A stretch of 61,662 nt of DNA, counting the filler, from Hausera hauseri (taxonomy: Eukaryota): the NCBI GenBank assembly GCA_046269625.1. It is 12 parts of 12 records of this genome, joined end to end, with 100 filler letters (N's around TTAATTAATTAA, not from the genome) between each part and the next. Parts side by side here need not be neighbours in the genome. Positions count along the whole stretch, not along the records: positions 21,556 to 25,912 come from JBJURY010619220.1; positions 26,013 to 30,087 come from JBJURY010778426.1; 10 more parts are not named here. The stretch is one strand, 5' to 3'. The notes below the pieces were generated by a model that was not told where the DNA came from, did not search any database, and worked only from the letters and a program-made list of their open reading frames with translations. The first letter of the stretch is position 1. Every line of letters starts with the position of its first letter. This document shows positions 5,439-51,825 of this stretch, piece after piece. The translations under genes and the position numbers were made by a program.

Positions 5439-5584
5439 GGGCTTGCGCCATTGTAAATAAATTGAATGGGTGTCACATTTGATATCCTGAAATAAATATT
5501 TTCTACGTTGGAATTATCATAAATAATATCATTCAATTTAACTTTGGTTATTGTCAACTTGGTAACCCCATTCTTGGTCATCAA

Positions 5585-5700
5585 TTCATTTTCAAAGAGG
5601 CAAATCGGGACCCGCCTATGTGTCCGACTCGCCGGCAGCGGAAAACCCAGCCGTGCCCAACCGAAAGGGTCGGAGGGTAATAGTTGGCGCTAACATTACA
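5585..5700 (-). repeat. Start of the 3' LTR of the Gypsy copy at 5701-10895 (diverged member of the TGTGG terminus family)
   Basis: Minus strand reads gccacgggttga|TGTAATG...GGTTGGGCACGGCTGGG...GTCGGACACATAGGCGGGTCCCGAT, similar to the termini at 22716, 26932 and 52672. It lies directly after the integrase 3' UTR. Confidence 0.7.
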
Positions 5701-10895: not shown

Positions 10896-10999
10896 CGAAG
10901 GCGCAGGGTTTGCGGTCGGAACCTCCGCCTTGAGGTGGCGGGCAGAAAAATGCTGGTGGGCGGAATTTCCCTTCAGAAATTTAGCATAGACTGTTGATA

Positions 11000-11330
11000 T
11001 GACATTCAATAAGAACAAATTACTAACGCCATACGGTCGTGGGGATATCGATTTGAGAATCTTCTGCTGCTGCAAAAAGAAATCGTCCTGATTACCAATA
11101 CTGATGGTCGTTGAAGTGGATGGTATTGATGACACAATTGGTGCACCGATTTGTTGACCGGCACCAAACCCACCGAATGTCGACGATGTCTGTGCACCGA
11201 ATCCGTAGCATGTTGTTGATGAATAGTCGAATAATTCTGGTTTATTCGTCGCATTGCCGAATAAGTTCAATGTGGTATCAAGCGTTATATGTTGTGGCTT
11301 CTGTTGGTTAACAAACAAACTACCTTGTTG
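11000..11330 (-). pseudogene. NUP98: Nup98-like FG-nucleoporin fragment
   Basis: GSLF, NLFGNATNKP, GFGAQTSSTFGGFGAGQQ followed by LQQQKILKSISPRPYGVSNLF, which resembles the Nup98 post-FG motif LQQ...SPFGDSPLF. Confidence 0.65.
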
Positions 11331-11519
11331 AGGAAACACTCTGACACTCTGTGTCGTTGCTGGAGTCACACCAAAGCTGCTATGTGCAGGAAAAACGCTT
11401 GGCTTCGATGTGACTAATTTTTTATCTTCGTCGATTTTCACGGTCCACTTTGAAATGTGCGAATTTAAATCACTGATGAGCAGATGCTGACTGCTAAATA
11501 TGGAGTCGAACTACTACTA

Positions 11520-12266
11520 CTATATTGACGAACTACTCGCACTATTGTTGGTGCTACTAATGAGAGTGGGAAACATAGATGTAACTGGCACATGTGAATT
11601 GGAATGTTCGTTGCTAGAGGAGTGGCAGTTAGATGGTAGTCTACCAGGACCGGTGACAATGTGACGTTTTGAAAGCATTTCACTTGCAACTTTAGAAATA
11701 GTTTTGTAAATACATGACAGTTGGTGTTTGTCGTATAGTAAATTCTTTCGTTGTGACCACATTTTTATGAGAATGTTTTGAAAGTCAGGAAATACTCCAA
11801 CGATTTCCATTTGAACTAAGGCGGCAGTGAGCAAAATCAATACTTCGCAAACAGAGGAACCGTTTATGCGTGAAATAGCAATTGGTTTTGTCATACTCCT
11901 TTGCGGACGATAATAGCCGCATAATTCAGTAGCAAATGATAGAAAATCTTTATTGGATTTCTGAAGTTTATTTTCGTCATTGTTTACTTGAAAATGCCGT
12001 ACACTCTTTGACTGCTTAGTTTTTATGTTTCGCACAAAGTTGCTGTCTCGATGTTCCAACAATAATTCCAACAAAAACAATTTATAATTCTTTTCTTTTC
12101 CAACATCGTTTTGAATTACATCTGCTAGATGAAATCCAGATTTCAAAGTAGCAATTTTTGGATCTAATCTGTACGACTTTGGTTGCAAGCTCGGATAACA
12201 TACAATGATTTTTCTTACGTCAACTCGACCTTTCTCCAACAATATTTTAATTTCCTTGAATTCCAT
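11520..12266 (-). CDS. Hypothetical protein fragment (248 aa)
   Basis: ATG-initiated ORF with no recognised domain. Confidence 0.3.
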   Translation of the reverse strand: MEFKEIKILLEKGRVDVRKIIVCYPSLQPKSYRLDPKIATLKSGFHLADVIQNDVGKEKNYKLFLLELLLEHRDSNFVRNIKTKQSKSVRHFQVNNDENKLQKSNKDFLSFATELCGYYRPQRSMTKPIAISRINGSSVCEVLILLTAALVQMEIVGVFPDFQNILIKMWSQRKNLLYDKHQLSCIYKTISKVASEMLSKRHIVTGPGRLPSNCHSSSNEHSNSHVPVTSMFPTLISSTNNSASSSSI

Positions 12267-12817
12267 TTTCGCAAATCTTTAAAAAGCAGCAACGCCAAAT
12301 AATTTCCAACATTTTTCTTACAAATACTTATACATCTGTATTCTAATTTCAAAGTCAACATCTAATGAATAAATATGATAATATTCCTGATCAGTTAATA
12401 GTACGATTTTCTTTAAGCGTCTTTTTATAAGTCTTATTAGCCATTCTTTTAAACGATTCTTAACATCATATTTGGTTCTTATTTTCTGGCTCTTTGGATT
12501 TATAAAATTTTTTGAATTTTGATGAGGTACGTATTATGTTAATGTCTTCATCAAGTAATCTTTTTGATTCGAGATCAATTACGTTTTCAAATTCACCTTG
12601 GTCATTTAAGTCAGATGTATGGCTGACAGTATCTTTTGCCATTTCATGAATAATCGAGGATAAACAATCTGTAACAATATCATATTCGATTGAGTTTATG
12701 AAGCTCTTTTCGATACTNNNNNNNNNNNNNNNNNNNNNNNNNNNNNNNNNNNNNNNNNNNNTTAATTAATTAANNNNNNNNNNNNNNNNNNNNNNNNNNN
12801 NNNNNNNNNNNNNNNNN

Positions 12818-21555: not shown

Positions 21556-22715
21556 TGCCAAGTTCGTCTGGCTAAAGAATCAGACGCCGTGTGATTTTCA
21601 ACCTTAGTATCTTGGCCCTTACAAAGTATTTCGTTTACACTCTCGCAACATCATCATTCTCAAGGACGACAAAGAAGTAACAGTCCGCATCAACAACGCT
21701 AAGCCGGCTTTCTTCATTGACAACACGTCTCCCATTGAAACCACTTCTCCATCAACATCTTTACACCACGCGCAGCAATCCAACAATTCACCTTTCATCT
21801 CCGCTCAATTCTTCAACCCACTTTCATATACGTTTTCTCACAAGATTTCTACTTCCATTTTTTCTGACAGGTCATCTTTTTCCTCATCCGATTTTGCACC
21901 TTCAAGCTTTTCCACACCTCTTGCATCCCCTGAAAACAACCTGCATTCTCTTCTTACAATACCTCCTCCATCAAACACCACTTCGATTTCACCAATTTCT
22001 CCATCCACCCATTTCATCATTCCAGCCTCTTGCATACCACCTTCCAACTACTTTCCTTCTCCTTCTCCATCTTCTTGCTCTTTTACGCTTTGTCCCTCTT
22101 CGTCGTCTTTTCTCTCTCTCTTTCTCCTTCCACATTTTCCTCAGCTTCGGCGCTTTCGTCCTTCCTTTCTCTTTACACATCGCCTTCTACCCCTTTCATT
22201 TTCGCTTCGCAACTTCGCCTCTTTTTTCTTCAATCTGTATCTCTTTTCCTCTCTCCACACCACCTTTGTGTCATCTTCCACTTCCACTCTTTCGCCTTAT
22301 ACAATTCCAACTTCTACTCCACTAATCATCACTCATTTTTCATCTGCAACTACACCATTTATCGTTCCTTCGTCTTCTAACACTCTCTTGAATACCTTTA
22401 ACCATCCATCTTCGGCAATCTCTCTTTTTCCTTCACCTTCTTACTCTTTTTATTCTGACTCATCTTCGCACGACACAACACTTACAACAAAATCCGACAA
22501 TTTTTCCCCAACTTCAAGCTCTGCAAGCAAACACACAGCATAAAGACAAAACACGCAGAGTCATATTTAGCAAGTATAGCAGGGAAAAATCAGTAGAAGG
22601 CACCCAACGTCTTGTTCACACTAAGACCAACTGACACACACGCATTTTCGTTTAACGATTTTTTTTTCCGTCTGTTTTAATCTTCATAGTTTTCACTTTG
22701 CCACTGGGGGAATGA
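21556..22715 (+). mobile_element. Gypsy 3' end: integrase C-terminus, long S/T/P-rich tail, terminal peptide, PPT
   Basis: AKFVWLKNQTPCDFQP*YLGPYKV...VRINNAKPAFF matches the copy near 6340-6490. The tail ends RRVIFSKYSREKSVEGTQRLVHTKTN* (22554-22634). PPT GGGGGAATGA at 22706-22715. Confidence 0.9.
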
Positions 22716-22915
22716 TGTGGTGCCCACAGCGGCCGGTGCCCTTTGGCCCATTTGGTTGAACACGGCCGGGAGTCCATTGCCGCCGTGTCGGGCCATTAGG
22801 CGGGCCCCCAATCTTTTGCCTCGAAAGAATTCAAAGAACTACAACAAAATGGCCCGACATTCATGTTCGGATTTTATCTGCAGACGTATTAGTACATTTT
22901 GTATTTACGAATCGA
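22716..22915 (+). repeat. LTR 5' terminus (TGTGGTGCCCACAGCGGCC...)
   Basis: Begins with TG immediately after the PPT. About 200 bp aligns with 26932-27130, and the first ~100-120 bp with 52672 and 59017(-). Confidence 0.88.
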
Positions 22916-23553
22916 TTACATTTCAGTCAGTAAAAGTTTATGATTGAAGTTTACAATGAATTCAAAACCCATGTTTTCGTCTATTCTCATATTTTAAAGT
23001 TACTAAAAAACGAAGTAACAAACGCTTACAAAATTCAATCTTTTCCCATATTGAAAACATCTTACAGAAAATTATATCATTTATTTACTGTTTTCGACAA
23101 CAGAAATTCTCTGGTTGAAAATTTCAAATCCAGAAATTTGAAAAGTATTAAAGGAAAGAAGTCCAAGAATATTAACACAACAAATTCTATCAAACAAATA
23201 CGATCTAAAAACGACGTTTCTAAACTTTCCAAATGTGTCAAAAGAAACTCAAAATCGTGCGTTTCTTCGAGGAAACATCTAAATGAAATTAATGAATCCA
23301 GCAATATTCTGAACAAATTAACCGAACAGGCCCTTTCAACATAAAACAACAATGCTAATATTCTAAACGGAAGATGCCCTAGAAGTTATTTCCCAAAATA
23401 TTCGATGCAGTGCACAGATATAAATACTTCCAACAAAAAAATCGGTTTATCCAATACTCAATAAAATACGATATAAATACAATTGTATTTTCTGCTGCTG
23501 ATAGTTGAGTTAAATCTTTTACTGTCAATTTAACTTTATTTAATTTATAAAAA

Positions 23554-24180
23554 ATGTCCAATGATGTTGAAATGCAAGAAACTAAAATTCTTCTTTTGAA
23601 TAAACTTTATGAAAACAGAGAGACGAAACCAACTGAGAAATTAAAAGAATTAGACGGTGTTATTAAAGATGAAAAATCACACGCTAAAGAAGCTGAATTT
23701 ACCGGCTTAACAAAAGAAGAATTGGTGAAGTTTTCCAAAGATCCATTCTGGCGAAAATTACGTATTGCGTTGTTTATTTTGTTTTGGATCATCTGGATTG
23801 GTATGTTGGTTGCCGCCATATTAGTTGTTATGTTTAATGCGAAATGTCCGAAAAGAAAAATCTAGAACTTTTGGCAGGAAAAAAACGGTTACTGGGTTGA
23901 CACTGTCATTTATTGATTCTAATTACGATCGAGTTGGAAATTTTAAAGGTTTAATGTCTAAATTAGATTACGTAGAAAAATATCTCAAAGCTGGTTATAT
24001 CATACTCGATCCGATATTTAAAGAACATTACACGATTGGTAACGATACTATCGGTTTAGTAACGAATTTCAGTGAAATTGATTTGATATTTTGATCAAGG
24101 GCCAATTTGACAAATTTGTTTAAAGAATGTCGAAAACGAGACTTTGAAGTGATTTTAGCAATCGATATCAATGGATTAGC
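23554..24180 (+). pseudogene. SLC3A-type amino-acid transporter heavy chain (4F2hc/rBAT-like), N-terminal part, disrupted
   Basis: FTGLTKEELVKFSKDPFWRKLRIALFILFWIIWIGMLVAAILVV...AKCP (SLC3A2_N signature plus TM), then the amylase-like SFIDSNYDRVGNFKGLMSKLDY. Contains a stop and a frameshift. Confidence 0.88.
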
Positions 24181-24392
24181 AAAAGATAGTAACATATTTA
24201 CGGATATTGCCAATATTGCTGTGAAATTAAGTTCGGCAACAAATTGTAATTTTGTTTAAATATTCAATGAAGAATTTAGCGACTTTTGAAATTGAATTTT
24301 TAATTCGCCATTTTTTTGCTAAACGATTTACACGAATTTTGAAGGATATTAAATAGAGTTTTGATTGTTATTTGTTCTTTAAATGTTAGACT

Positions 24393-25143
24393 ATGGCCAA
24401 CAATAACAATAATAGTCTTAATGCATGCTTGCTCGTTTCATGTCCCAGTTGCCAATTGGAGATGTATTTTTGCCGGTTTGTTTCTTATTGTGAAAACGAC
24501 TGTATCTCGGATTATATTTACCGTATAATTAAATATTTCTGTTGTAACGCAGTTTTGAGTCGTCACATCATTCGATATCATTCGAAGAGTGAATGTTTAA
24601 TGCGGTTGAAATACAAATGTATATGTGGAGATCAAAAGCCAAACGACGACGATTGTAACGAATTTCAATTTGTTAATTGTCACAATCATTGTCTATCATG
24701 TTTGCAAAGAACATGCGATTATAACAATTGTACCATTGTGTCTTGTGACAATAATTGTGGTGCTGTTATGCACAAATGCAAATTGGACGATCATGTACAG
24801 TACATATGTGGAAAATCTCTCGTTATGTCTAAATTTTGCCTATGGCTGCAAGAAGTTAATTTTCCGGGACTCGATGTCTAAACATGTGGAGAAATGTGCA
24901 GGCAGCATTGTTATTTGTACACGGAAATGTGGTCGACACATGAACGGTAACAAAATTTACGATTCATCGTTGGACTGTTCGTCGTTTTTCGGAAATTGGA
25001 AAATGAATTTACTCAATGAACTGAAAATAAAGGCGAACCACGTTGTTTGTTTGCGTTACGGGGATGCACTTGCATTGAGTGATCAGTTGCGTTTATTTGA
25101 AGAATCTCAACGGGTTTGCGATGCTGATGTGTCAAACTATTGA
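24393..25143 (+). pseudogene. FBXO30/FBXO40-like TRAF-type zinc-finger N-terminus, frameshifted
   Basis: HNHCLSC...C...CGAVMHKCKLDDH...C...CLNFAYGC...MSKHVEKCAGSIVICT...DALALSDQLRLFE follows the FBXO30/40 N-terminal pattern. Confidence 0.8.
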
Positions 25144-26931
25144 TACGACTCTAACGTAATTAATGAAATTAAAATGGTTTCAAAAATGCAAAGACTTTTT
25201 CACAAAGGTAATATTCATAATATTCATAATAACATTCATAAAACGGAAACGGTATTTGGTGTTTACGAATTCGTAAGAAGAACCATTACTCGGTATTACT
25301 TTGCCAATACTCGACATGGGTGTATGAATTTGGATTCACCGAATTTCGATCCCGATGCAACAGTTGATGAAAAAACTGAATCGGCCTTTGAGGGATTCAT
25401 GTTCGGGGAATTTTTTCCACTTTCTACGAGAAGCCACCCGTTGCCGACAAGCGAAATTCGTTGACTGGGAATATTAGTTGCATCACAGATTATGAACAAA
25501 ATATGATTTATAAAGAGGGTGATTATCCATATCAGTTATTTTGGTGTGCGACAAGACAACATCAAACTAATGGCTTGATTTTTGGTGGATTTTATTCGAA
25601 GACTGTGACAAATCCTTTGACAAATTCACAGTCTTTTCTGGAAGGGTTCACGTCTAACCATTTTATTGATTCCATTTACTTTGTCTCTCGCCTGATCAGG
25701 GTCTGGCTTTAAAGGTGCCCCATTTTAGTGGATTATACACCAATGTCTTTGGTAATCCTTTGGCTGTGTCGAAATCCCTAGCAGATCACAAACAATACCC
25801 CGAAACATGCCCAATTTGATATACTAGTGTTTATATGTCTGCTGATAAAACCGTAATGCAGATGTTTGCTAAAATTATGTATGACCCGTGGGACATTGAT
25901 TTAAAGCTTAGTNNNNNNNNNNNNNNNNNNNNNNNNNNNNNNNNNNNNNNNNNNNNTTAATTAATTAANNNNNNNNNNNNNNNNNNNNNNNNNNNNNNNN
26001 NNNNNNNNNNNNGACAAAATTCGTCAGGAACCACAATGTATGTCATGCCCGTCAAACAAGAACTCAGGTTCACTGATTGGTCAAAAACAAACAGTCCGAC
26101 ATATGTAGTATATGCCGATATGGGTACTGTCTTACCACGGCATCATATATATGACCAAAAACATGTTCAAATCGCCATCGGTATGTTAGTTGTCTTAGTA
26201 AAAGCTGCAGGTCAACCTCAATATTATGCTTCCCACGGAAGGAATTGTGTACGCGATTTCATGCAGCAGTTTCAAACCCTAGTGGGAACTGAAATCGCAC
26301 CCTGGTACATTAGAAATAGCAATAAACTCTTGATGTGTACAAACAAAGATGAACGCCTGACGTTTGCAGTCACAGAGGAATATTACCTGTGCCACAAAAT
26401 GTTAACTTTTGACGCATTGGAACAACTCCTACCGGATCACGATCGTTTTGCGGATCGATATCTCGGAGCAGCATGTAATTTATGCAATTTGGCGAGGCCT
26501 GTGCGGCTATTCTTATTGGTGGTATTTCATAACTTCAGGGGTTATGATTGGCACCATATTTTGAAATGGGCAATAAACGGATTTCCGCACTGGGAACTAT
26601 CCATAATTCCGACTACGATGGAAAAATACCTGTCACTGCCTGTTTGTGTAAACCAGTTCTAGGTACGCTTCCTCGATTCATTGCAATTTCTCAACGAATC
26701 ATTGGCAAAGCTGGTAAATGCCTTGTCAGACTTGCCGATAGCACTGACACAGTTACCCGCATATATCGCACACAGAAAATACATATTTCCATATTACTTT
26801 GCAACATCGTATGAGCGACCCCGGACAGCACAGGAATTACCACCGTGATGGACAGGTATCTAAAAGGATGAAAACCGGAAAGCACAGAGGTGTTGGACAG
26901 AACTCGACGGTAGAAATATGTTGATTTCATG

Positions 26932-28365
26932 TGTGGTGCCCACAGCGGCCCGTGCCCTTTGGCCCATTTGGTCGGACACAGTCGGGCTTTCGCTACCTTC
27001 GCGTCGGGCCCATAGGCGGGCCCCCGATCTTCCGCCTTGAAAGAATTCAAAAATTACGACAAAATGGCCCAACATTCGTGTTCGGATTTCATCTGCAGAC
27101 GTAATAGTATATTCTGTGTTTACGAATCGAACATCAACGTAGCAAACAGTAAGAAGTTGCGTGTTCAATCTCAACGTACAACCAGTCCACCGCCGAGTAC
27201 CTTTTATTCAGTGTTTGAAAAGAATTCCTCATCGTCTTTTGTAGCCGTTCAGCATTCGAAATCGGTACCTATGCAATTATCGTTTCCCCAACAAAATATT
27301 AATAAATGCAAGCCATCGAATTTGGATGTTGTTGCAACACCGAAACGAGGTACTCGTAAGAAGGGTATATTGAACTGTTTAGTTTTCAGAAACCGATCTC
27401 ATTCCCATTCGAAATCAATCGAAGACAATTTCCTACTGCAGCAAAACAAAAAGCTTTTCCCGATCAGTTAAAGCAGATGATTATAAAAATCTCTCTGATC
27501 GAAGCTTGACTCTTCCAAATCTCAAATCCAGTGAAATCGACTTATCAGTTCAAATAAAAAATTCTCAACTTCTTAGTATAGACTTAATAAAAGATTATTT
27601 AAATCAATCAGATTATACACTGTCTTCCTCCGTTCATGGTAGACCACTTAACAAGTCTATTCAAAATACTCAAAATCAGTTTTGCATATCAGCTCAAAAT
27701 TTCCCGCTTTCGATATCAAACTGTTACTCGAACAGAATAACGAGCAGCAGAAAACAATGTAGAATCTATTGTGTCGCGCTTAATTCAAAATGCCGGATTC
27801 GTTGACCCTTATGTGTGTCATTTGTTGTGGTGCTTTTGTACATAAAAAAGAAATTTTTGTTTTAAAAAGAAAAAACAATATACGATTTGTTTTGATAATA
27901 AAAAAATTTGCACACTATTGAATTTATATTGATGATTTTCTTTCGCCATTTTTTGAAATTTTATTCTGGTCAATTCTGATATTGATATTTTGCAACAGTC
28001 GGTTATTGAGTAGATGTTGAATCTGGTTAATGATGCAGTTGATGAATTTTTTCCAATTGATAGCAAATTTCTGTGAGGAGTGCTCGTTATGCGATGCTGC
28101 CGATCGAGTTTACTACATGATGGAAATGTTCTGAATACGTTTGGATGCATTTTGGTTTTTCGCCTGCGATATTTGTCTTACGGTGTCATCTGGCATGTTA
28201 ACAATGGGAATTATTCCGTATTGATTTGCTGCAATGCCGATGCATCTCTCGTTATGCCACTGTTCGTTGTTTGCAAAGCGGAAAATCTGCTTGCATCATG
28301 GTGTCAGGATGATCAAACTGGTACTCAATATTCCATCAGTCCGATGGATTTGTTGACTTATAACA
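26932..28365 (+). mobile_element. Insertion beginning with the Gypsy LTR terminus (solo-LTR-like unit with cargo)
   Basis: Starts TGTGGTGCCCACAGCGGCC. PolB reading stops at ...TTC ATG (26931) and resumes CTC CAG TAT GTT AAA CTG GAT (28368), matching M|LYYLKLD in the other PolB copy. Imperfect target duplication CATG/CATA. Confidence 0.8.
28205..28360 (+). pseudogene. pogo/Tigger-like DDE_1 transposase fragment inside the insertion
   Basis: YSVLICCNADASLVMPLFVVCKAENLLASWCQDDQTGTQYSISP resembles the DDE_1 segment TVLxCCNAxG...P.VVYKGKNLxxSW...GTxY. Confidence 0.6.
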
Positions 28366-30187
28366 TACTCCAGTATGTTAAACTGGATGCGTACTTATTA
28401 GCTAATGAGTTCCAAGCATTTTGAATAAAAGTGTTGACTGAAGATAGGCTGTAGTCGCTCAACTTTTATCCCATACCGGGATTGAGTTGGGCATCAGCTC
28501 TAATGTCATTGTATCGAGACATTGAGCTGCTGCAAGACCCGAAAATGTACCGACTTTTTTGATCTTGGTATTTGATGCGGCATGACATTTGTCAACAAGC
28601 ATCCGGTCAGTGCTACCAATACCAGATCACTGCTGTATATTTATATTAATAACCTGTACGGTTTGGCGCTTTTGTAAACCTTGCCGTATGGTTAATTCGA
28701 ATAGGTTGTCGACAGACAAGATCTGGACGACATAATGGTAAATCTGCGACGAGCAGACATGGCGGGCTCAGTCGGATACATGATGATGGTCGATCTCCTG
28801 GTACCAGATGAGCTGCATGACGTTTTGCACGATTTACCGGTCACACCATTTAACCAATATCCAGAAACTTCTCATGACGCATGAAGCGAAGCTGAATTAC
28901 ATGGTCCATTTGCGTGTGTTACAGTTCTACATGCAGCTCAGTGTTCGCGTCATACAGCTGCATCGTGCAAGCCGATTTGTTCAGGCTCCCATATTCAAGG
29001 CGTACATAGATGGAAATTAGGAGAAACGAGCCGCAGCTTGTACAAAGTTCGAAAAGGACTACCACAAGCTGAAAAATAATTCTCTGTACGGAAAAACAGT
29101 GGAGAATCTGGAAATGCGGCTCAATGTACACCTATGCAATAGCGAAAAGCGGTTGGTCACGTACACAAGTAAGGCGCAATTTCGTCGATCAATGCATATA
29201 GCCGATGGATTGGTTGCGGTGCTGTTAAACAGAGAAGAAGTCGTTCCGGACCAGCCAAGTTACATCGGACAAGTGGTATTGGACCTGAGCAAGTTGCGTA
29301 TGTATGAGCTACAGTATCGCGACTTGGCACGTTGCCGGCAAATGTTTGACGGCTGTGACACTAGTATAATGCCGGTGACATACAGTTCTTTTCTGCGGCT
29401 GAAAAAAGTCAATCGCAAACAGCTACTGTAGCTAATGCAGTCAGGTGGATTACTGAACACGTCCAACTACCCAGCGGTTCACCCGTTGTACAGCAGCGCG
29501 ATTACCAACAAAATCGGCTGCTTCAAGGATGAAAGTGAAGGCAGGATTTAGTATCGGGAATGGATATTCCTACGCCAAAAGTGTTACAGTCTTCTGACGG
29601 ACTGTGGACCGAAAATGCGGGCAAAAGTAGTCCAGCTGAGACAAACGAAAATTGACCACGGTGATTATCGCCGTATACATGAAGAAGCGGCAGAAGGAGG
29701 ACAAACAGTGGCTGTTGTGTCTGAAATGATTATCAAATTAAATGAACGCCAGCTGTACACAATAACTAGTGCAAAAGTCCCTTTTTCATGTAACGATGAT
29801 AAGCGAAAGTGGATGGGGCGAAATAAGAGTTGGGCGTACGGACATTAGTAGCTGAAATAACCGCACGTCCAAACAATGGGTGCTCTGTCGGTTCAGACAA
29901 ATCGGTTCAGTTCAGTTACTGTGACAATCACTGACAATTATGCGATGTATATTGTGTTTTTATATTTCAATAACGTATTTTGTTCAGTGTCTTGTGTTTT
30001 GTTTTCGGTTACTTACTTAGCCTGTTATTTTTAAGTAAGATAGAAGTAAAAGTAATACAATAACCTTTCACGAGTAAACAAAATATGNNNNNNNNNNNNN
30101 NNNNNNNNNNNNNNNNNNNNNNNNNNNNNNNTTAATTAATTAANNNNNNNNNNNNNNNNNNNNNNNNNNNNNNNNNNNNNNNNNNNN

Positions 30188-34901: not shown

Positions 34902-34922
34902 TGTGGTGCCGAGGACTCGGGC
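34902..34922 (+). repeat. LTR 5' terminus, second variant (TGTGGTGCCGAGGACTCGGGC)
   Basis: Directly after the PPT; 20/21 identical to 51805-51825, after which the two copies are unrelated. Confidence 0.75.
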
Positions 34923-35049
34923 GCCATCACAGCAAGTGTATACTAGTAATCACACAAACAATCAGATTCATGTTAAATCTTCCACAAATCAGAACAGCGA
35001 TGAAGAAACCTCAAAAGCCATAGGTCGAAATTATTTTCGTCAAAAGAAA

Positions 35050-35400
35050 CGAATGGCGATCGAGAAATTTGAAGATACTGACGAAAAGCCCTGTCAAATT
35101 TGTTTAGGTACTAATTTACCTGAAATGATTCTTTTATGTGATTCGTGTGATTTGGGTCATCATGCAATGTGTTTGAAGCCATCGTTGATGAATATTTCAG
35201 AGAGAAATTGGTATTGTCTCAAATTCCAAAATAAAAATTGCTCATATCTTGACCAAAAAAAATTATTGTCGAAATCGAACAGTGTCAGATTAAAATTGCA
35301 GCAAAAATTCGAATGCAAGAAAGATTAAATTTTGTGAATATATCTATGTCGAATATTTTGTCGAGTACTCGAACAAGAAAATCGCACAAGAAGTACGGCA
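35050..35400 (+). pseudogene. RSF1: RSF1-like PHD-finger fragment
   Basis: DEKPCQICLGTNLPEMILLCDSCDLGHHAMCLKPSLMNISERNWYC and downstream ERLNFVNISMSNIL resemble the RSF1 PHD finger and its following motif. Confidence 0.72.
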
Positions 35401-36366
35401 AAGAATCAGAAGAGTTTTTCTCTGAGAAGTCTTCAATGTCACCTTCCGTTTCCTCTAGTTCAGGATTGTATGATTCTTTAGAAGACTCTGACTCAATGTC
35501 TGAATCGAATTGTAAGCCATGGGGTCGACTGAGAAATTGGAATCTGTCAGAAAAAAAAATAAAACGAAATAGATAGAGGTGCATCCGATACCGAAAATCC
35601 GATCAGATTAAAAATTCCAAAAGTTGAGGATTGTACCGAGCCACTGCCGGTGTGCGTTGATAACAGACGTGCCGATTAGATACATGAAGAACCTGCCGAT
35701 CCGATCAATGACACGTTGGACAATATGTCTGATTCGTTATGCATCAAAAATCCGATGAGAACCAACGAAGATAATGATTACAATGTCGAAGATGAAGTAG
35801 ACTCAAAAACGGAATGTGAAATGACTTCTTCAATCTGTGTTTTGTAGATGCTGTACATATGTTTTATCCTAATTTTTGTGTCTTTGGACTATTGACTGTT
35901 TTCAATTAAATATAACAAAATATGGAAAATTGATTAGAATTTTTTATTGGTTTTAATGGAAATAAAGCTTGTTCAAGTATAGTTTTGTCTACTTAACAAC
36001 ACCCCTCCCGAGGAGAAAAAATTGATGTGGTTCGCAGATGAGTCATGCGTAGAAAAAACGATGCATACACGCACGATTAATAGGGCGTAGACAGGAGACA
36101 ATCGCAAAGTGGATACACACAAGGAAGTGTACTGCATGGTTTTTAGGTACGTGTAAAAATTTAAATTTCGCGCAAAATTTTTTTTGTTTTAATTTTGCTG
36201 ATTGGGTATAAATGTAGGTGTGCAAATAGCATGGCGTTGTTTTAAGGAATAGTACTACAAATGGTANNNNNNNNNNNNNNNNNNNNNNNNNNNNNNNNNN
36301 NNNNNNNNNNTTAATTAATTAANNNNNNNNNNNNNNNNNNNNNNNNNNNNNNNNNNNNNNNNNNNN

Positions 36367-37207
36367 AGAGCGCTAAGCTGCAGAATGACCGTTTGGAGAA
36401 AGTTGGATGGCTTTTGGCTTCATATCGCGTTGTCGTTAAAATACTTTTGTATTATATTGCCAATCAAAGGATCCGTGACATGCATTACAGCTTTACAGAG
36501 TGTCTCGTAAGGTGTCGAAGATTGTAGAAGCTCGGAGATATTATTAATCTGCTGCTTGACGTTGGCAGGCAGAAGAATTAATAGGCTATTGACTCGCACA
36601 AAAGAATCAGTGGTATTGTGCGATTTTAGCCACTGTTGGTGGAATTGGAGCCATGGTTTGCTGGAGTTGTTTCTGTCGAGAAAAAATTCCACACAAGGTA
36701 AATTTAATGACCTTCGTGACTGTTGGGAATGTGGCAAACAATAGACGTTGCCTGTATTCGTGGATTTATCATCCGAGAAGGATGGGTTTGAATCCGATCC
36801 ACCCGGAGGCGAAAATAAAGCATGAGATAGATGTCTGGACGTTCGAGGCATGCGAAAGACAAGAGAGAGTCCGAAGGGTGTATCATAAGCCCTCGATATG
36901 TGAAATGGAAATCCTAAGTGTTGTATGATAAGGACAGAGCGTTATATAAGAGCTGTGCTGTATTGTTGAGTGGAACTCTTATGGTTTTTACATGTTGATT
37001 ACTGCTAAAGACTTGGATAGAAAATTGTAGTGAGGCGATCCCAGGGGAACGATGAAATACACGGGGGGCTTGGGCGGTTACCTTTTGGGTTAAGAAGCAG
37101 CTTGATCGTACAGCCGGAAAAATAGTGGCAAGTATTGATTGTGATGAAAGAATATCACAGGTTTTTGAGCTCAAAAGGTGTTCAAAATTGAGATTGGTGT
37201 TGGCCAT
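36367..37207 (-). mobile_element. Gypsy 5' part: UBL-gag (same lineage), truncated by the contig end
   Basis: LQFSIQVFSSNQHVKTIRVPLNNTAQLLYNALSLSYNT*DFHFTYRGLMIHPSDSLLSF...YLMLYFRLR/GGSDS, with one TAG and a 1-nt frameshift (GG at 36798-36803). Then LNLPCVEFFLD...WLQFHQQWLK...NSLLILLP, matching the Gag at 30450-30600. Confidence 0.88.
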
Positions 37208-39629
37208 CAAAGATTTGTGAGAGCGCAAAAAATGGCCGCACTGGTGGGCGCAAACAAGTGAAAAAAACTTCACCCACCTGTGTCCGAATGTGGTTTTGCT
37301 GAGCTCAGTGACAGCATCTTCATTGTGACCAAACATCGACGGTGTGCTTGCAACATGGAATAATTGCGCTAAACTGAAATGGGCACCGTGTAAACTGATC
37401 TGTCTTTGCGGTAAAAGAATATCAGTGTCGGTAATGTCGTAGGACATTGGTGGACCCAGGCCTTTCTGAGATCGTCCAGCGTTAGTCATTCTGCCTTGAA
37501 CGTCAAAAACTGGCGTAGATCTTTTACTCATAACATTTTTTCTTAATTCCTGTATCATTCGAATAAGACTTAGTGACATAAGATACCGAAAACTCAAGAA
37601 TCTAGCCAAACTGTAGCATCGTCTGAGGTTTTATAATAAGCCATGCCTTATTGGGCTGTTCAAAATACACCATAATTAATTCTTATGGGTACTGATCATC
37701 TTCAATACCCGCCAAAATTTCCGAAACTTGCTCGTAGAACTTCACAATTAGGGACGAATTGAGGTTTGTTAGTCGAGAATCGATATTTTAAAGAGTTCCA
37801 CAAATGTTGTTTTTTAGTCTTATGTCGCTGACCCAGAAAATAATACTTATTCAAAACGCCCCATTTTCTAAAGCACTGCAGTGTATCATTTCCAAAAGTA
37901 AATATTCGGAATGGTCTTTTAAGCACAACTCTGGAGATCTAAGTGAAAATTGCCAAGAATGCTAAATGTACCGATCAAATGAACAATGCTACCGCAAATC
38001 GGTATTTGATCAATGTAAGTTAATATTTGATTTTGAAACGATAACAGACTGTTAAATGAATATCTAATTAACTCAATAAAAATTTTCAAAATTCGTAAAA
38101 CGTCGTTATTTTTAGGCGGTGACATGAGAGATAAATTCAATACCGATTTGAAAAGATTAACAAATTTCTCAGCAGACACTTTGCTCACTGGCATTGAATC
38201 CATATATTCTTCTTCGTCAGATAATTCGATAAAATAAAGTGGTTTGGGACATTTAGCAGCCCGTTCCGGCTGTCGGTTTATGGTTTGGAGCATCAGCGGC
38301 GGTCTATGTACATCTATTTCCCTGCCTTATAAAACACCATCAAACGCAGGAGATATGGGTGAGTTCCGGTGAGTAAGAGGTATGACGGTTTTCCTTCGAT
38401 AAAAATTGTTGAACTATGTCCAAAAACTTATGAGACGAAGACTTTGGATGATCACACACATAAGACATGTTAAGCCATGATGAGTTCTTTGGTGGAGGAT
38501 GCGAGCTTTTACTGTCGGACTCATTAAATAGTCTAAGTTTTTAGTCGTTATCGGACTACTGTTCTTAATGGTTTCGGGAGTAGGACATGCACTCAATTGA
38601 AATGATATAATCTCCTCATTCATGCTGTAGGTTAGTGAATTTGTTGTTTATTCGCCCTTAATACTTGTGAAACATTTTTGTCACTGTCCGTTTTTGACTT
38701 CGTTATTTGATCATTCTCGACTTCACTCTTTTTTTTAACGTCACTTATAACCTGCGAATTCTTTTTCGGCCTACCTCTGGGCTTCTTTGTGTGTACAGTT
38801 TCAGTGTCAAAATGCTTCGGTGCTTTGGATAAGGACTCGGTTTCTATCTTTTTTATATTACAAGCTTCATCAGTAAAATCCGCTTTTAAACATTTCAATC
38901 TTATTGAAAAATTATCACTTTCTTTTAATTTTCAACGCCTCAACTTTGGTTCAGGACTATTTAGAATTGTCGAGCTTATTGTCGAACCAGTGTCTCCAGA
39001 AACACGACGAACAAACACAAGTGGACATGACATAGGAAAAAGTTCACTGAGTCCAATCCATCGTAAAATGCAATTTCTAATATTAATATCCACCTATTCT
39101 TCCTTCTTCGTTAGCTTGCTTAATTGAGGTGGTTTCAAAATACGAGAGTATAACCGTTCCATTGCCAGAAATAAGGGAACACCCGTTTTCCTACTTGTAA
39201 CATAAGATGACAACAAGAATTTCGCAAAAGCAACCCTATTTGAAATTTTGAAACTTTCGAACGTTGACTTTCCTCGAAATACTGCTAAAGCTAAACCTTC
39301 CAACGGTAACGTTAATAGACTCGAATAAACAACAAATTCATTCGAATTTGGATAATAGTGGTAGCGTTTTTTCAAATCACACGTCACTTTGAGATTATGT
39401 CCATATTTCATTCGATTTGCAGGAAAATAAAATCGAATACTTGCAAATCGTGTAATGTCGAAATCATGATTTCGTAATTTTCGTCGAAAAAGATGCACGG
39501 GATAACAAATACAAAGATCTTTTGAATCAAAAATGAAATATTCAATTGAAGTGTTTGTCGAAATGACTGACATTTTTCATTCGTAATATTGGTTGTTCGT
39601 TTTGAAGTCATTGCCTTGTTATACTGACT

Positions 39630-41050
39630 TTTTAAAAAAATTTCTGAAACTGATGTTCACCAATACCTTCCCCAGATACGACCGTGTAATCAATTTCACG
39701 GCAAATCGGACATGCCCATTTGGACGTTAAAAGAAAATGCAAGTTACGACCATCACAAGTTTCAACTGGATATTTTGGAGATAGTTGTAATTTATCACCA
39801 GTCCATACCGGGTCTTATCTCAATGTAACAATTGTCCGACGACCTTTTGAACAGACATCCGTTTTCCGATTACTAATCATCTTTAAATGAAGATCCAAAC
39901 CAGTTTCGTCCTTAGGGAAACCATTTTTAATTAGGGAAATGTTCATCTCCATCCAAAATTCTGTGCTATCGTTGGGCTGCTTGAGGTATTCAAAGGATTC
40001 AGCTAAACTAATAGATTGAACGGCATATATTGTTCCGTTTTTGGCTGTAATTGAAAATGTGGTCAGACGACAGACTGGACCCATCTCCTCTAAAGAAGTA
40101 TCTTCTTTTCCAGTGATATTACCTAGGCAACGGGAAAACATTTCACTGTTGGTGGGAAAATAATTATATTATAGACGTGTCTACATTCGTGACCTTGAGC
40201 AGTAAATAATTCGCTACCTCGTAAAACAAGGTGTTGATTCAATGATGACAAAATATGCTGGTGATTCTCTTCTGACACAAAATATTGAATTTGCATCTGG
40301 AACACAAACGGATCCATTTAATGGATTCAAACCGGGGCCACATTTTTCACAAGCCTTTTTACTAAGACCGGGATAATGTTTCAAAATAGTCCCACTTGGA
40401 CAATTTTCACATTTCGTTGATTCACTTGCAAAATATCTACCTTTGCCACAATTAACAGTCATTAGACTTGATATCACAAACCTGACAACAACTCGCTTCA
40501 ATATCATTTAATTTTCCTAGTCTTATCGAATATATATTCATATAATCACTGTTCCTACGACTGAATAGCCAGCCTTCTACTTTCCGTCGTGAATTATATT
40601 TGTAAGTCTGAGTCTTTGTTGAATTGATCCAGATAAACATTCGTATCGTTTGAAAATCTGTATATCCCAAGAAAAGATGAAAAACACATTGCATTGAACA
40701 GTTCATGATGAAATCAAAAGTCAGTAAAGTCTCTGTTTCATCGTTATCAACGTCTCCGGATTTTGAGTCAGAATCTGATTTAGTGTTTGTATCAAAATTT
40801 AACTGTAATACATTTACATCAACCGATGAAGATGATCGCAAATGATCGCCATTGAATACCCAAGTCTCATCACTGTTACATTGATCATCTTCCTTCAAAC
40901 ACCGAACGAAGAGATTCGGTAATGGTCTAGTCCATTTATCATAAACCAATTGATACACAGGAACTTGATTTGGTTCACATTTTGAACATTTTTTCATCCA
41001 TTGAAACAGGCTGATTGGATGGACAAAAAACGCAAATATTAGTTGAATTC
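39630..41050 (-). pseudogene. ELAPOR/KIAA1324 (UPF0577) family, disrupted
   Basis: WVFNGDHL, CPSGTILKH...ACEKCGPG, FTAQGHECRHVYNI and ETCDG...FLLTSKWACPICREIDY match successive family motifs in the expected order. Several frameshifts; no introns evident. Confidence 0.82.
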
Positions 41051-41572
41051 GTAATCCCACTTCTGACACCAATGTGGTATAATAACTCCAACGAGAGGAA
41101 GATAAATCCAAATGGCAAGCAATTTACTTTACTATCACAATTCAAAATTCAACAAATCAATTTCTTTTATTTATTTTCTATTTACAGAGCAATAATTTTA
41201 TTACAAACGATATTACAAATGCAACTGTCCATATTCTGACACTGTTTGTTAAAGGAGAACATTGCAAAAATGTGAAATGACGTAGATTTTGATTTGAGAT
41301 GGATTGCACTGCTTNNNNNNNNNNNNNNNNNNNNNNNNNNNNNNNNNNNNNNNNNNNNTTAATTAATTAANNNNNNNNNNNNNNNNNNNNNNNNNNNNNN
41401 NNNNNNNNNNNNNNACCATAGAAGTAGTGTTTATTTTAATTTAAAGTATTAATAGGTTAATATATATTGCATTTTACGCTTACTTTAATTTATTTCTTAT
41501 TCATAATGCAAACATTATCCCGTGTATTGCGTATCACGCATACACGTAGATCATGAGCAGTGCCATTAGCAG

Positions 41573-47257: not shown

Positions 47258-49608
47258 TTGTTTCTTTATTCTTTCGTTATCTATCAAGTGGATATATATT
47301 CTCTATCAGATCAAATTGGTGTCAGATTTCCAGCAACAATGATATTCTTTAACCAATATGTTCAGTTTACTGATTCCATTACCAACACAAAATCGGTGAA
47401 AACGACTCTGGATAATTTCTATAAACTTAGTCAAACTATCCAGTTAAAATTTCGAGAACCAATAAAGGCAAATGATTTAGTTTCAAAATGCCATAATAAA
47501 GTAAAAAAGAAAATGGGGCAACAATTTCGCTTGGATTATGAAGATATACAGTTAAATTTGGAATCTTTAATTTTAAATCAATTGAAATTAGAGATGTCAG
47601 TTGTCGAATATCATTCGGTATATTCCAAGGTTATACTTGAAGAAATCATTTCTTGTAATTCCGATCAATCAGTCATGTTTTCGAAGCCGAATAAAAGTTT
47701 TCAAAATCTTCAGATGATCGAACCATTGGCTCTTGTTACGTGTTTATTTTCAAAAGGTGCAGTTAGTTCTGGTCTGTTATATGAATTCTTCCTGGTGTAC
47801 AGGGAAGTTTACACTCCACTTGAATTGATCAAAGAAATTTATAAAAATTTCACGTATATCGAACAAAAACTGAAAGTCTGCGTCATATTATCAACTAAAC
47901 TTCGACTTCGCCTATTTTTCATTTTGCTCTGTTGAATAGACGGATTTTATGACGTTGATTTCGACGAGGAAGTAATATCGGTGATATAGAATATCGTTAG
48001 TAACAAACTGAATCCTTTTGTCCGAAACGTTAACATGCTTATTGAAAGGGCACTGACAACCGCAAGATCCAATAACGTCTGTTCTCTGTCCTTCCAGTTC
48101 ACAGCTCTTAAAAAGAAGGCAATTTTGATGTATCAAATGTTTTATTCCGTATTACAAACAGTTTGGAGACGTCTAGAAAAATTGGACCATCAGCAATTAT
48201 ATTCTGTTCTTCTGAAAGACTACGCCAATTGCTATGAACATTATAACTATTGATCATTGACTAAGCACAGTCAAAATTTTTGGGATGATGTTTGTTTGCT
48301 ACACGATCTTGTTATTCTCTCCGATTATTATAATTTACGATAAGATCACTGGTCGATTGTCATCAAATTTAAGATAAGAAACATTGTTGGAATTAAAGAC
48401 TGGAATCCTAGAATATACTCGTTTACCACCATTGCTAAACTGGGAAGCAATGGTCCTGATAAACCCTTTATTCGAAGAAGAAGCCTGTTTAGAAGAGTTG
48501 AAACGTTTGTGTATCAATGAACAATGTTTTTCAGGGTTCGAGGTAACTGAACAGCGTTGTCTTGTTTCAACAAAATCATCGTTGTCTAATTGTCAGCAAT
48601 TATTTTCAGACAATCCGAGAAGTAAAAACATAATCAAACGCATGTTAAAATTCACTCAGAAAGTAGCAAACATGGTTGAATTACTTGTAACAATGATTAA
48701 ATTCTGTTGTTTTAAACCGGATTATTTATATGTACTGCGTGTCTGTTATAATTGTGCTAATGGCATCATTCAAACTGGCAAGCACAAAATGGCTCTGTTG
48801 ACTAAAGTTGCCGATTATTGTAAGGTTTTGCTCAAATGGAAAAGTCCTTATGCAGTTAAACTGACTGAAGAAACCGATCAGGTTAATCAACCGGAACTTA
48901 CCGTTGAGCAAACATCTCAGATTATATCCGACACAAAATTTTTTCATCCAATGAAGTACACATGTTTCACATCGTATTTTGACAGGCGGTGATATCCAAA
49001 ATAAACCGTTCCTAGGATTCTTTTATGCTATTCAGATGAATGAAGGACTTGAGGTTTTCTATGAGTGTGCCAGCAGGCTCATAGATACAATCAAATATGT
49101 TAAATATCTTGATTCAAATACAAACAGCGAAAGGTCGGTAAAAGTTATGCTCGAATGTTTCCTTATTACTGTTGATCGAATGACTCAGATTCGTCGAATT
49201 ACCAAAGAATTAGAAGAATGCAGTGATAATAAATTTTTCTCATTGGAAATTGACCTTCAAATTTTGAAAAGATTTACTATGGCTCAGAGTGCTCATAAAC
49301 AAGTGGTTGACGTTCTATAAAAATATCACTACTATTTATCATTCTGGCCTACAATGTCAAGACATATCATTAATTCAAACTGTGATTTAAAAAATTTTAT
49401 GCGAGATATTATTGATAATATTGAAACTATGCAAGCATGGCTATCGTGCTGTGAATGGCTTAATTGGAAGACACGTCAGGTTTGCCAAACGTATGCTGAA
49501 GTATTAAAACGAGAAATTAACATTGCCAAATTATTGGAAAATAATCTGAAATTTCCTACAATTCGCATTAAACAAAATTTAATTGGTTTGCGAACAGTTC
49601 AGTCGTGA
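47258..49608 (+). pseudogene. Large disrupted host gene with a possible RasGEF N-terminal (REM)-like segment
   Basis: Run of same-strand ORF fragments; YEFFLVYREVYTPLELIKEI resembles the REM motif FLLTYRxFxTPxELL. Confidence 0.35.
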
Positions 49609-49614
49609 AACAAA

Positions 49615-51804: not shown

Positions 51805-51825
51805 TGTGGTGCCGCGGACTCGGGC
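51805..51825 (+). repeat. LTR 5' terminus, second variant
   Basis: TGTGGTGCCGCGGACTCGGGC, near-identical to the post-PPT sequence at 34902. Confidence 0.6.

Follow-up and report, generated by a model that had tools for sequence, protein, structure and literature searches.

Copy-specific host-gene fragments in a CsRn1-like Ty3/gypsy lineage of Hausera hauseri point to probable repeated capture by template switching

Decayed copies of a CsRn1-like Ty3/gypsy lineage were found in genomic DNA of Hausera hauseri (GCA_046269625.1), and each readable copy carried a different load. Pieces of host mRNA were probably captured repeatedly in this lineage, its reverse transcriptase having switched templates to RNA packaged alongside. 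Such capture is a known process, but its extent and placement in these elements look unusual. The LTRs were about 1–1.4 kb or more in length, with conservation confined to the integrase motif and a 5′ block of 21–200 bp, and mixed host fragments totalling 3–4 kb filled the interval between the primer site and gag.

Results

Sample and element class

The window (the whole stretch of DNA analysed, 61,662 nucleotides) consisted of 12 mutually unrelated contigs of 4.1–7.3 kb, separated by 11 identical 100-bp spacers. Position 25912 is a contig end, so the 3′ limit of the region 22716..25912 is arbitrary. With contigs of 4–7 kb, no element held both of its LTRs within the window. The earlier remark that no second terminus lies near gag is therefore in part an effect of the 12 short contigs and their artificial spacers.

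The arrangement of the elements was that of Ty3/gypsy: gag, then PR-RT-RNase H-integrase, a purine tract and the LTR, as determined by Pfam and by tblastn of intact relatives. The Pfam domains RVT_1, RT_RNaseH, Integrase_H2C2 and rve were observed in that order on two contigs. In a tree of the integrase region without outgroup (37 rows, with 36 of 120 matches), the lineage formed a branch well apart from named insect and tapeworm relatives. The copies were filed as CsRn1-like, and not placed as members of the CsRn1 clade, because their primer site corresponds to tRNA-Leu and not to tRNA-Trp.

A scan of GTDB with the integrase frame returned one distant locus in 37 stretches, without similarity to this DNA, and no tRNA genes were found in the window.

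Recurring LTR terminus

The 9-mer at position 22716 occurred exactly seven times, against 0.17 expected, which confirms the recurring terminus described in the first-pass annotation:

22716, 26932, 34902, 51805, 52672 and 53762, plus strand; 59017, minus strand: exact copies of the 9-mer

The motif TGTGGYG is of the CsRn1 type (Table 3 of PMC3601003, which gives it as the CsRN1 integrase motif); the seven copies are exact, and that at 5700(−) is diverged. The motif is followed by a GC-rich block of about 110 bp (57–66% GC), common to five copies. Since several copies diverge at about nt 92–116, this block is probably U3, the promoter portion.

The shared length of about 21 to about 200 bp proposed earlier agreed with the alignments, which ranged from 20/21 nt (34902 versus 51805) to 174/203 nt (22716 versus 26932, where alignment stops at nt 206). 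Between these lay 22716 versus 52672 (92/112 nt) and 22716 versus 59017 (66/76 nt). The copies fell into two subgroups having just 9 nt in common. For the terminus at 5700(−), a match was present from nt ~24 to 116 (71/88), and the 9-mer is absent. The copy at 53762, previously considered weak, has the 9-mer and is probably a real, diverged copy because 17/21 nt are identical to 51805.

Beyond the shared part the copies diverged, as had been claimed. Past nt 230, local scores peaked at 22–36 against shuffle maxima of 27–37, with 2 of 20 pairs marginally above their 20 shuffles (22716/26932, 36 vs. 30; the other, 28 vs. 27). Upstream, the copies at 22716 and 34902 were preceded by a purine tract and by a 3′ region in common with the element ending at 5700(−), with local scores above 100/100 shuffles for all three pairs. 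By local alignment, this tract-linked 3′ region was absent before the remaining five terminus copies.

A role of the terminus as a ribozyme or known RNA was rejected: no Rfam match reached the gathering score, the rest having E > 1, and folding stability was not unusual (z from −2.3 to +0.6 in eight copies). A second stem of the terminus showed paired changes in some copies, which are equally readable as a direct repeat.

The 3′ LTR at 22716 and the sequence behind it

The following features were delimited on this contig:

21556..22705, plus strand: 3′ end of a gypsy element from the contig start (integrase C-terminal part, pyrimidine-rich tail, 3′ untranslated region)
22706..22715, plus strand: polypurine tract, read from the sequence (9 purines among the final 12 nt)
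22716..22827, plus strand: 3′ LTR start with integrase motif and GC-rich block, by 9-mer count and alignment
22828..22921, plus strand: ~90 bp common only to this copy and the solo LTR at 26932, an older shared layer, by alignment
22922..23550, plus strand: copy-specific LTR interior with a 136-codon sense frame, stop, AATAAA at 23460 and a T-rich tract, by frame scan
23554..24260, plus strand: broken, 3′-truncated SLC3A fragment opening with a start codon, by Pfam and human 4F2hc
24393..25912, plus strand: disrupted FBXO30/40-like piece (zf-TRAF_2) by Pfam, followed up to the contig end by coding-like DNA

The relative P0002 matched 21557–21799 and 22506–22628 in tblastn, and the sequence leading up to the purine tract shared 73% identity with the element ending at 5700(−) over a 498-bp alignment. 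In the interior 22922..23550, the sense frame exceeded 300/300 shuffles, as did an antisense frame of 102 codons, and no Pfam match was obtained. The LTR end near 23550 is a candidate suggested by analogy with the other copies; TTATAA at 23550 was rejected as a conserved LTR end, being a candidate in AT-rich DNA.

The SLC3A assignment made earlier held (Pfam SLC3A2_N, E 5e-25; human 4F2hc, E 5e-13), as did that of the FBXO30/40-type piece (zf-TRAF_2, E 7e-8 and 2e-7). The breaks in both are stops and small frameshifts; the SLC3A fragment has an in-frame stop and a frameshift, with truncation near 24260. Sense coding was favoured in 12 of 15 windows over 23551–25912. None of 201 candidates proved homologous when longer proteins were searched with the SLC3A fragment. 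The two pieces start 840 bp past the terminus, directly after an AATAAA and T-rich tract resembling other LTR ends, and may lie either inside the LTR or directly flanking it.

Solo LTR at 26932

Comparison with an empty paralogous site at 43964–43967 delimited a complete LTR:

26932..28363, plus strand: solo LTR of 1,432 bp inside a Polinton-type PolB gene
26928..26931, plus strand: target-site duplication, left copy
28364..28367, plus strand: target-site duplication, right copy (1 mismatch in 4)

At this single site, a 4-bp duplication with one mismatch fits best; a 5-bp duplication with two mismatches fits too. The solo LTR was 85% identical to the 22716 LTR over ~203 bp and unalignable beyond. 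With only this portion shared in 1,432 bp, the LTRs are not short but long and specific to each copy, and the earlier claim of long LTRs differing among close relatives is borne out. The interior is unique, and a sense pogo-type DDE piece (DDE_1, E 2e-5, in agreement with the first reading) reaches its 3′ end. No recognisable host gene was matched by Pfam in this LTR, its content being the transposon piece and frames without a match.

The same site bears on the possibility that short contigs were mis-joined at the repeated terminus, creating false chimeras. The window is indeed a concatenation of short contigs, and an exact run of 32 nt is common to two termini. Identity among the termini is, however, 76–87%, and no other exact run exceeds 21 nt; the solo LTR matches an independent paralog on either side, and no repeat is shared at the junctions between leader and gag. 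Such an assembly artefact is hardly credible.

Other LTR copies

Further copies were placed as follows:

34902..35998, plus strand: second-subgroup 3′ LTR belonging to a decayed, nearly full-length element (PHD finger at ~35092–35217; AATAAA at 35961)
5439..5700, minus strand: beginning of a third element's 3′ LTR, truncated at the contig end (first 23 nt diverged, shared block to ~nt 116)
51805..51825, plus strand: terminus of the second subgroup, by 9-mer and alignment, without a preceding purine tract
52672..52783, plus strand: first-subgroup terminus that splits the RNase H region of a different gypsy element, by alignment and Pfam
53762..54737, plus strand: probable second-subgroup terminus through the LTR end (17/21 nt; primer site)
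57797..59017, minus strand: terminus at 59017 with copy-specific coding-like interior, by alignment and frame scan

The end of the 34902 LTR near 35998 is a guess from the change in sequence character there. Its PHD finger, about 190 bp after the terminus (E 1.5e-8), was recovered as first described, with ATXR5 and UHRF1 as the best PDB matches; the name RSF1 was not, the match being to a generic PHD. After the shared block, 5439..5700(−) continued into unique coding-like DNA. The LTR ending at ~54736 would measure 975 bp if begun at 53762 and ~2,065 bp if begun at 52672. Repeats of 4 bp offered 8 candidate ends for the copy at 59017 and 9 for that at 52672, and fixed neither end.

In five of six LTR interiors above 600 bp, the longest sense frame exceeded at least 298/300 shuffles; one of two control regions also held a long frame (7/300 shuffles). 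Four interiors had no database match in Pfam or Atlas, and for the frame at 57882–58325 Atlas gave low recognition and no usable match. Judged by their frames, the interiors look coding-derived and sense to the element. The 3′ ends of the LTRs are alike in composition and share no sequence.

Primer site, leader cargo and gag

A primer-site 10-mer was found three times against 0.14 expected, each copy co-oriented and 63–104 nt downstream of AATAAA, and the sites match the tRNA-Leu motif of PMC8905726. The fragments upstream of gag had been taken as part of the 5′ LTR. The two contigs with sufficient upstream DNA (36367–41314 and 47067–51446) each have an LTR end and tRNA-Leu primer site 3–4 kb before gag, so this cargo is internal, in a 3–4 kb 5′ leader, and not part of the LTR. 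The following leaders and gag regions were identified:

47317..50333, plus strand: 10-nt primer site and ~3.0 kb of leader cargo before gag (RasGEF-N-type gene beginning at its 5′ end; ankyrin piece); 18/18 windows sense
37096..41071, minus strand: tRNA-Leu primer site (12/12 nt of the published motif) and ~4.0 kb of leader cargo before gag (ELAPOR1-like and unmatched pieces); 19/25 windows sense
54738..57041, plus strand: 8-nt tRNA-Leu primer-site remnant and leader cargo, CLU-like gene 5′ end first (CLU_N, E 4e-5, slightly below the cut-off); 14/15 windows sense
10896..12717, minus strand: leader cargo truncated at the contig end, with a tyrosine-phosphatase piece and an FG-rich one; 8/11 windows sense
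50334..51446, plus strand: gag with an N-terminal part of ~80 residues ending in Gly-Gly (ubiquitin-like lead)
9700–10895 (minus), 30190–31330 (plus) and 36367–37096 (minus): gag equivalents, by tblastn and comparison

The ankyrin piece noted earlier was recovered (E 4e-5). The name Nup98 for the FG-rich piece found no match in Pfam or PDB, the likeness being one by eye. Extra primer sites close before gag (50131 and ~37833) and at 27967 were rejected, the short motif being common. The ubiquitin-like label for the Gag N-terminus was likewise kept only as a lead (Atlas 0.86–0.87, below 0.9; PDB SDE2, E 1.3; no Pfam match).

Cargo orientation and public chimeric proteins

A total of 306 frames on both strands were scanned, with cargo counted in the LTR, the leader and 3′-adjacent DNA. 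All nine recognisable cargo genes (E ≤ 0.004), in all seven contigs concerned, were sense to the element; the sign test gave about 0.008, with four of the nine matches below the Pfam curated cut-off and the SLC3A/FBXO30 block, which may adjoin the LTR, included. Antisense matches appeared only at E ≥ 0.009.

Two public proteins showed a similar layout. P0125 comprises an N-terminal part of DIS3L, a piece of CNOT1 and the same Gag, and P0127 comprises CARM1 and the same Gag. The search that yielded P0127 covered proteins of 547–1743 aa, a range favouring N-extended Gag forms, and both may be artefacts of gene models that bridge breaks. The CX2HX9CX3C Gag motif is intact in P0125 (one) and P0127 (two), and broken but recognisable in the copies of the window. 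In a profile search with five matches, four were dropped as unrelated repeat or membrane proteins.

The original claim that the family carries pieces of host genes is supported; the pieces lie sense to the element, and the two proteins show the same arrangement. Partial, multi-gene, sense host sequence was found inside the element, the kind of chimera that PMC5131818 gives as a signature of LTR-mediated retroposition.

It was also considered whether the LTRs are very short or eroded and sit in pseudogene-rich DNA, the fragments being flanking sequence from another process. Contig 1, where broken host-like genes lie on both strands and no element was seen in the Pfam scan, indicates that similar debris may have other origins, and the second terminus subgroup shares just 21 nt. 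Yet the solo LTR contradicts a duplication right after the conserved block, its own lying ~1.2 kb beyond it, and cargo lies between primer site and gag, every identified fragment is sense, and two external proteins have the same layout. This explanation is quite improbable.

Discussion

Proposed mechanism

Under the favoured reading, capture by template switching, leader cargo would arise late in minus-strand synthesis, when the enzyme would move onto an mRNA and copy it to its 5′ end; the plus-strand jump at the primer site would then rescue the mRNA-switched product. This step would account for the observed 5′ gene ends that bear a start codon directly behind the primer site, which is full length in one copy and reduced to 8–10 nt in two. 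Capture into the LTR would take place during the long minus-strand strong-stop step or the first jump, when the enzyme would switch to the RNA of another element or to an mRNA in its 3′ portion and then return near the LTR start. The resulting order would be conserved block, unique coding-like piece, stop, AATAAA and a short T-rich end. A borrowed polyadenylation signal could replace the old one in the LTR, and successive rounds would stack several fragments.

The template-switching model would require gag to be translated from behind kilobases of cargo.

A narrower account would limit capture to the internal leader, as in ordinary LTR-mediated retroposition, with LTRs of ~1 kb having their own fast-evolving U3, apparent LTR cargo derived from nesting in the cargo of other elements followed by deletion, and the SLC3A/FBXO30 pieces flanking an 835-bp LTR. 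Nesting is frequent (PolB, RNase H, and three termini within 2 kb of one contig), the best-identified host genes lie in leaders or past an AATAAA and T-rich tract, estimated LTR lengths cluster at 0.8–1.4 kb, and the pogo piece could be the remnant of a secondary insertion. U3 is, moreover, known as the most variable part of LTRs (PMC3601003). In contrast, R and U5 are normally better conserved, and the LTR 3′ ends are alike in composition only; similarity is lost abruptly after 85% identity, a PHD finger lies 190 bp within a 3′ LTR, and five of six LTR interiors have long sense frames. Restriction of capture to the leader is rather unlikely.

A more far-reaching version of the capture reading is put forward tentatively, as possible though on balance doubtful. 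The LTR would have no conserved R or U5 and would consist of the integrase motif and a short promoter block, the remainder, including the polyadenylation signal, being borrowed from host mRNA 3′ ends and swapped between generations. The 5′ ends of mRNAs would be inserted in the interval from primer site to gag, at times continuing in frame into a ubiquitin-like, possibly cleavable Gag leader. On this view the majority of copies would serve to shuttle gene fragments, as an autonomous retroelement equivalent of Pack-MULEs, and would be the chief origin of the processed pseudogenes in the genome.

LTR elements are known to capture genes occasionally, leaving retrocopies between their LTRs. If the present reading is true, routine capture with a kept gag-pol and a rewritten LTR would mean that little conserved LTR sequence is needed for replication. 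An invertebrate genome would also gain from it a steady supply of shuffled exons and processed pseudogenes. Annotators would be warned that what looks like a host gene, or a chimeric gene model, may in such genomes be cargo of a transposon.

Comparison with known systems

Among the open-access PMC and bioRxiv papers listed by searches on capture in or before LTRs or in giant elements, no description of this layout was found.

The CsRn1 clade (CsRn1, PwRn1 and AgCR; PMC2582038, PMC3601003) resembles the present elements in the LTR start TGTGGYG, the CX2HX9CX3C Gag motif and the order PR-RT-RH-IN with no env seen. It may also resemble them in an imperfect 3′ end (of AAA/ATA type and not CA in most copies here) and in a 4-bp duplication (the best reading of a single site here). 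By eye, the 3′ motif MSYYAMA was matched at 5/7 positions at three primer-site junctions, and by the solo LTR at 4/7 (4-bp reading) or 6/7 (5-bp reading). In contrast, the primer of the clade is tRNA-Trp, against tRNA-Leu here, and its LTRs measure 146–381 bp in the table rows concerned (mean 330 bp), against 1–1.4 kb or more. The 3–4 kb cargo leader and the N-terminal Gag extension ending in Gly-Gly also set the present elements apart.

LTR-mediated retroposition (PMC5131818), for which maize Bs1 and human FAM8A1 are cited there as cases, likewise leaves partial, at times multi-gene host fragments within an LTR element, open to re-copying. There, internal retrocopies flanked by discontinuous elements occur in a minority of copies, whereas here all readable copies have their cargo before a gag-pol that was kept, with further cargo apparently in the LTR. 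In the barley BARE-2 LTR chimera (PMC13317346), abnormal template switching put foreign sequence into an LTR; that was a single event with a retrotransposon donor, in contrast to the many copy-specific loads here, with at least one host domain.

As discussed in PMC6431247, among giant gypsy elements Ogre shares long LTRs with the present ones, and Burro shares host-like and ubiquitin/SUMO-like domains in an LTR element, fixed there in its polyprotein. Pack-MULEs and Helitrons are similar in having many copies with different gene fragments in each, but are DNA elements. The load described here is copy-specific, decaying and strand-biased.

Contigs, Termini and LTR Length

The window is cut into 12 contigs of 4,075-7,279 bp by eleven artificial spacers of 100 bp, all alike: a 12-base linker with 44 N on either side (the first is at 5339-5438). 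None holds a whole element, and adjoining contigs are uninformative about one another. Any first-pass finding that reaches across a spacer is a concatenation artefact. The region under study starts with the terminus at 22716 and stops where contig 5 (21556-25912) stops. The SLC3A-type and other animal genes, together with the kinds of transposon present, suggest an invertebrate source.

The 9-mer at 22716 occurred seven times in the window against 0.17 expected, and it is the CsRN1 integrase motif, given as TGTGGYG in Table 3 of PMC3601003. The recurrence proposed in the first-pass annotation was thus confirmed, with the copy at 53762 only probable. Elements ending at 5700-, 22716 and 34902 had a common 3' untranslated region and a purine tract ahead of the terminus; the remaining five termini had neither and are 5' or solo LTRs. 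The termini of subgroup 1 (5700-, 22716, 26932, 52672, 59017-) had a block of ~110 bp in common (57-66% GC), and those of subgroup 2 (34902, 51805, probably 53762) ~21 nt. Similarity ended near nt 76-92, 112-116 or 203, and the sequence beyond scored at about shuffle level (2 of 20 pairs marginally higher), in agreement with the earlier description of ~21 to ~200 bp followed by unrelated DNA. The ~110 bp block matched no known RNA family in Rfam and folded little better than shuffles.

The subgroup 2 termini (34904-34919, 51807-51822) resemble the tRNA-His primer site as given in PMC3253121 (eight matches, a 2-for-1 difference, seven matches). This stretch is possibly a second tRNA-binding site where the LTR begins, or a chance likeness; Rfam returned no tRNA match for it. 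The region 51547-54737(+) is heavily nested: it contains three termini spaced 867 and 1,090 bp apart, a GPCR-like scrap, and an RT-RNase H fragment from a gypsy element that is less closely related (35-37% to the intact gypsy relatives P0002 and P0003).

The copy at 26932 is inserted in a Polinton-type PolB gene that has an intact-site paralog on a different contig. When the flanks were aligned separately to this paralog, the left one stopped at 43967 and the right one began at 43964, giving a duplication of four bases (CATG left, CATA right; a 5-bp reading with two mismatches fits too). The insert measures 1,432 bp and lacks a purine tract as well as gag and pol, and a solo LTR is the best reading of it. 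The insert was identical to the 22716 LTR at 174 of 203 positions and unrelated afterwards, which supports the earlier view of long and variable LTRs. Inside it lay unassigned frames, an AATAAA accompanied by a T-rich tract, and, up to the LTR end, a pogo-type DDE piece in sense orientation. CsRn1-type LTRs listed in PMC2582038 include lengths of 146-381 bp, and PMC3601003 gives a mean of 330.

Estimated lengths of other LTRs
LTR 34902: ~1.1 kb
LTR ending at 54736: 975 bp or 2.07 kb
LTR 22716: perhaps 835 bp

The alternative first put forward, that short LTRs were inserted in pseudogene DNA, is contradicted in the case of this solo LTR, whose target-site duplication does not lie right after the conserved block. 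Random insertion also predicts a 1:1 strand ratio. Pfam scans of 93, 149 and 64 stop-free frames (at least 38 codons, both strands of LTR and leader regions) gave nine recognisable cargo genes at E ≤ 0.004, four of them below Pfam's curated cut-off, and all were sense, in 7/7 contigs. One further weak match was also sense; antisense matches appeared only at E ≥ 0.009. Contig 1, with broken genes on both strands and no element seen on it, speaks for pseudogene-rich DNA, an explanation that was nevertheless considered highly improbable.

On contig 1 (157-2684(+), 2773-3960(-), 4442-5338(-)), the broken and apparently intron-free genes are of XMAP215/TOG and eIF5 (W2) type; they converge on an unbroken frame, 396 codons long, for which Pfam gave no match. 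Other features were also noted:

26013-30087(+) and 42443-45497(+): two decayed Polinton/adintovirus-type PolB genes, 76% identical
46463-46852(-): RING-finger gene
59300-61600(-): decayed piggyBac-type transposase (DDE_Tnp_1_7, E 1e-14)
18190-20300 and 20930-21455: scraps resembling, by eye, an RTE-type non-LTR element
12818-17048(-): long decayed frames in which coiled-coil-like parts and others that look ubiquitin-like by eye precede a fusion glycoprotein of Monjiviricetes type (E 2e-9); the arrangement recalls Burro elements, as described in PMC6431247, or an endogenous viral gene

LTR Interiors and the Pieces Following 22716

In five of six interiors longer than 600 bp, the longest sense frame was equalled by at most 2/300 dinucleotide shuffles; the longest antisense frame was equally extreme in one of six, and one of two control regions reached 7/300. 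The codon model gave no clear strand (4/8 windows for solo LTR 26932, 5/12 for 52672, 4/7 for 59017). By eye, interiors ran from a frame through a stop and AATAAA to a T-rich tail, and their 3' ends had only T-rich/AATAAA composition in common. The interiors look copy-specific and coding-derived. Their recognisable content is one host domain, a PHD finger from ~nt 190 of the 3' LTR at 34902, and one transposon piece. The claim that LTRs carry captured host sequence is supported at 34902; no other interior showed a recognisable host domain. That capture was confined to the leader and the LTR content is nested debris was considered unlikely.

Beyond its 203-bp common part, the 22716 LTR continued with a 136-codon frame, AATAAA at 23460 and a T-rich tract. 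An SLC3A piece began at start codon 23554, with an in-frame stop and a frameshift, and was cut off at about half length; an FBXO30/40-type zinc finger gene, broken as well, followed. Both genes were thus present as originally noted. AATAAA stands 90 nt ahead of 23550, a spacing inside the range found at the three primer-site junctions (63-104 nt). The LTR may therefore end near 23550, with both genes outside it. If so, they resemble another element's leader cargo (5' gene ends, sense).

Primer Sites, Leader Cargo and Gag

A 10-mer with the primer-site motif at its end was present three times against 0.14 expected (47317, 41071(-), 54738), each co-oriented with its own contig's element and 63-104 nt past AATAAA. 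Two further 8-mer matches lacked this spacing and co-orientation. The 41071(-) site agreed at 12/12 nt with the tRNA-Leu primer site reported in PMC8905726, and the other two retained 10 and 8 nt. We infer that the Leu site belongs to this family, since no other gag lies behind it. Host fragments started directly behind the primer site and took up the 3.0 and 4.0 kb between it and gag. Pre-gag cargo is consequently internal leader, and the earlier proposal that it belongs to the 5' LTR was not supported.

Leader cargo, windows scored as sense coding
RasGEF-N + ankyrin: 18/18
ELAPOR1: 19/25
CLU: 14/15
Tyrosine phosphatase (contig cut ahead of the primer site): 8/11

Gag opened with ~80 residues ending in Gly-Gly (50334-50579(+), 10640-10895(-), 30190-30360(+), 36800-37096(-), and the public proteins P0125 and P0127), for which only weak ubiquitin/SDE2-like leads were obtained (Atlas 0.86-0.87; PDB E 1.3). 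If the likeness is real, host proteases could release Gag from in-frame cargo. A GC-rich short motif was common to two leaders shortly ahead of the gag start (~10960-10935(-), ~37252-37215(-)), not significant alone (33/200 shuffles). Behind integrase, a pyrimidine-rich, Ser/Pro/Thr-coding low-complexity tail was long in two elements (5950-6300(-), 21750-22500(+)) and shorter in a third.

A profile search with the Gag N-terminus gave five proteins, of which one, P0125, was relevant. It joins a DIS3L N-terminal part (E 2e-25) and a CNOT1 piece (E 7e-15) to a Gag of this family, whose identity with the copies in the window is 45-53%. P0127, the single further match to P0125 Gag in a length-selected search of 547-1743 aa proteins, carries CARM1 (E 4e-80) in front of its Gag. 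Both proteins were selected for length and may be gene models spanning breaks; even so, the host pieces that precede this Gag differ between the two. Mis-assembly as a general explanation was considered extremely improbable. Intact Pol relatives stood at 67-69% identity and, in a tree without outgroup, formed with the window element a long branch separate from named insect and tapeworm proteins.

Proposed Mechanism and Comparison with Known Systems

Published accounts describe reverse transcription with two strand transfers, via R and via primer-site homology (PMC6894440), switching of RT to co-packaged mRNA, yielding partial, multi-gene, re-mobilisable chimeras (PMC5131818), and entry of foreign sequence into the BARE-2 LTR through template switching (PMC13317346). 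Template switching onto mRNA probably loads both leader and LTR. A switch late in minus-strand synthesis would place mRNA 5' ends behind the primer site, itself sometimes shortened; a switch at strong-stop synthesis or the first jump would bring 3' pieces into the LTR, of which only the integrase motif and 5' block would then be retained.

The window family would work like LTR-mediated retroposition. It is like CsRn1 in end motif and Gag motif, but the tRNA-Trp primer given for CsRn1 in PMC2582038 was not matched, and it is therefore termed CsRn1-like rather than a CsRn1 member. Its apparent capture frequency, kept gag-pol and rewritten LTR body exceed the descriptions in the available sections of the papers cited here, PMC6431247, PMC3286476 and PMC3253121 included.
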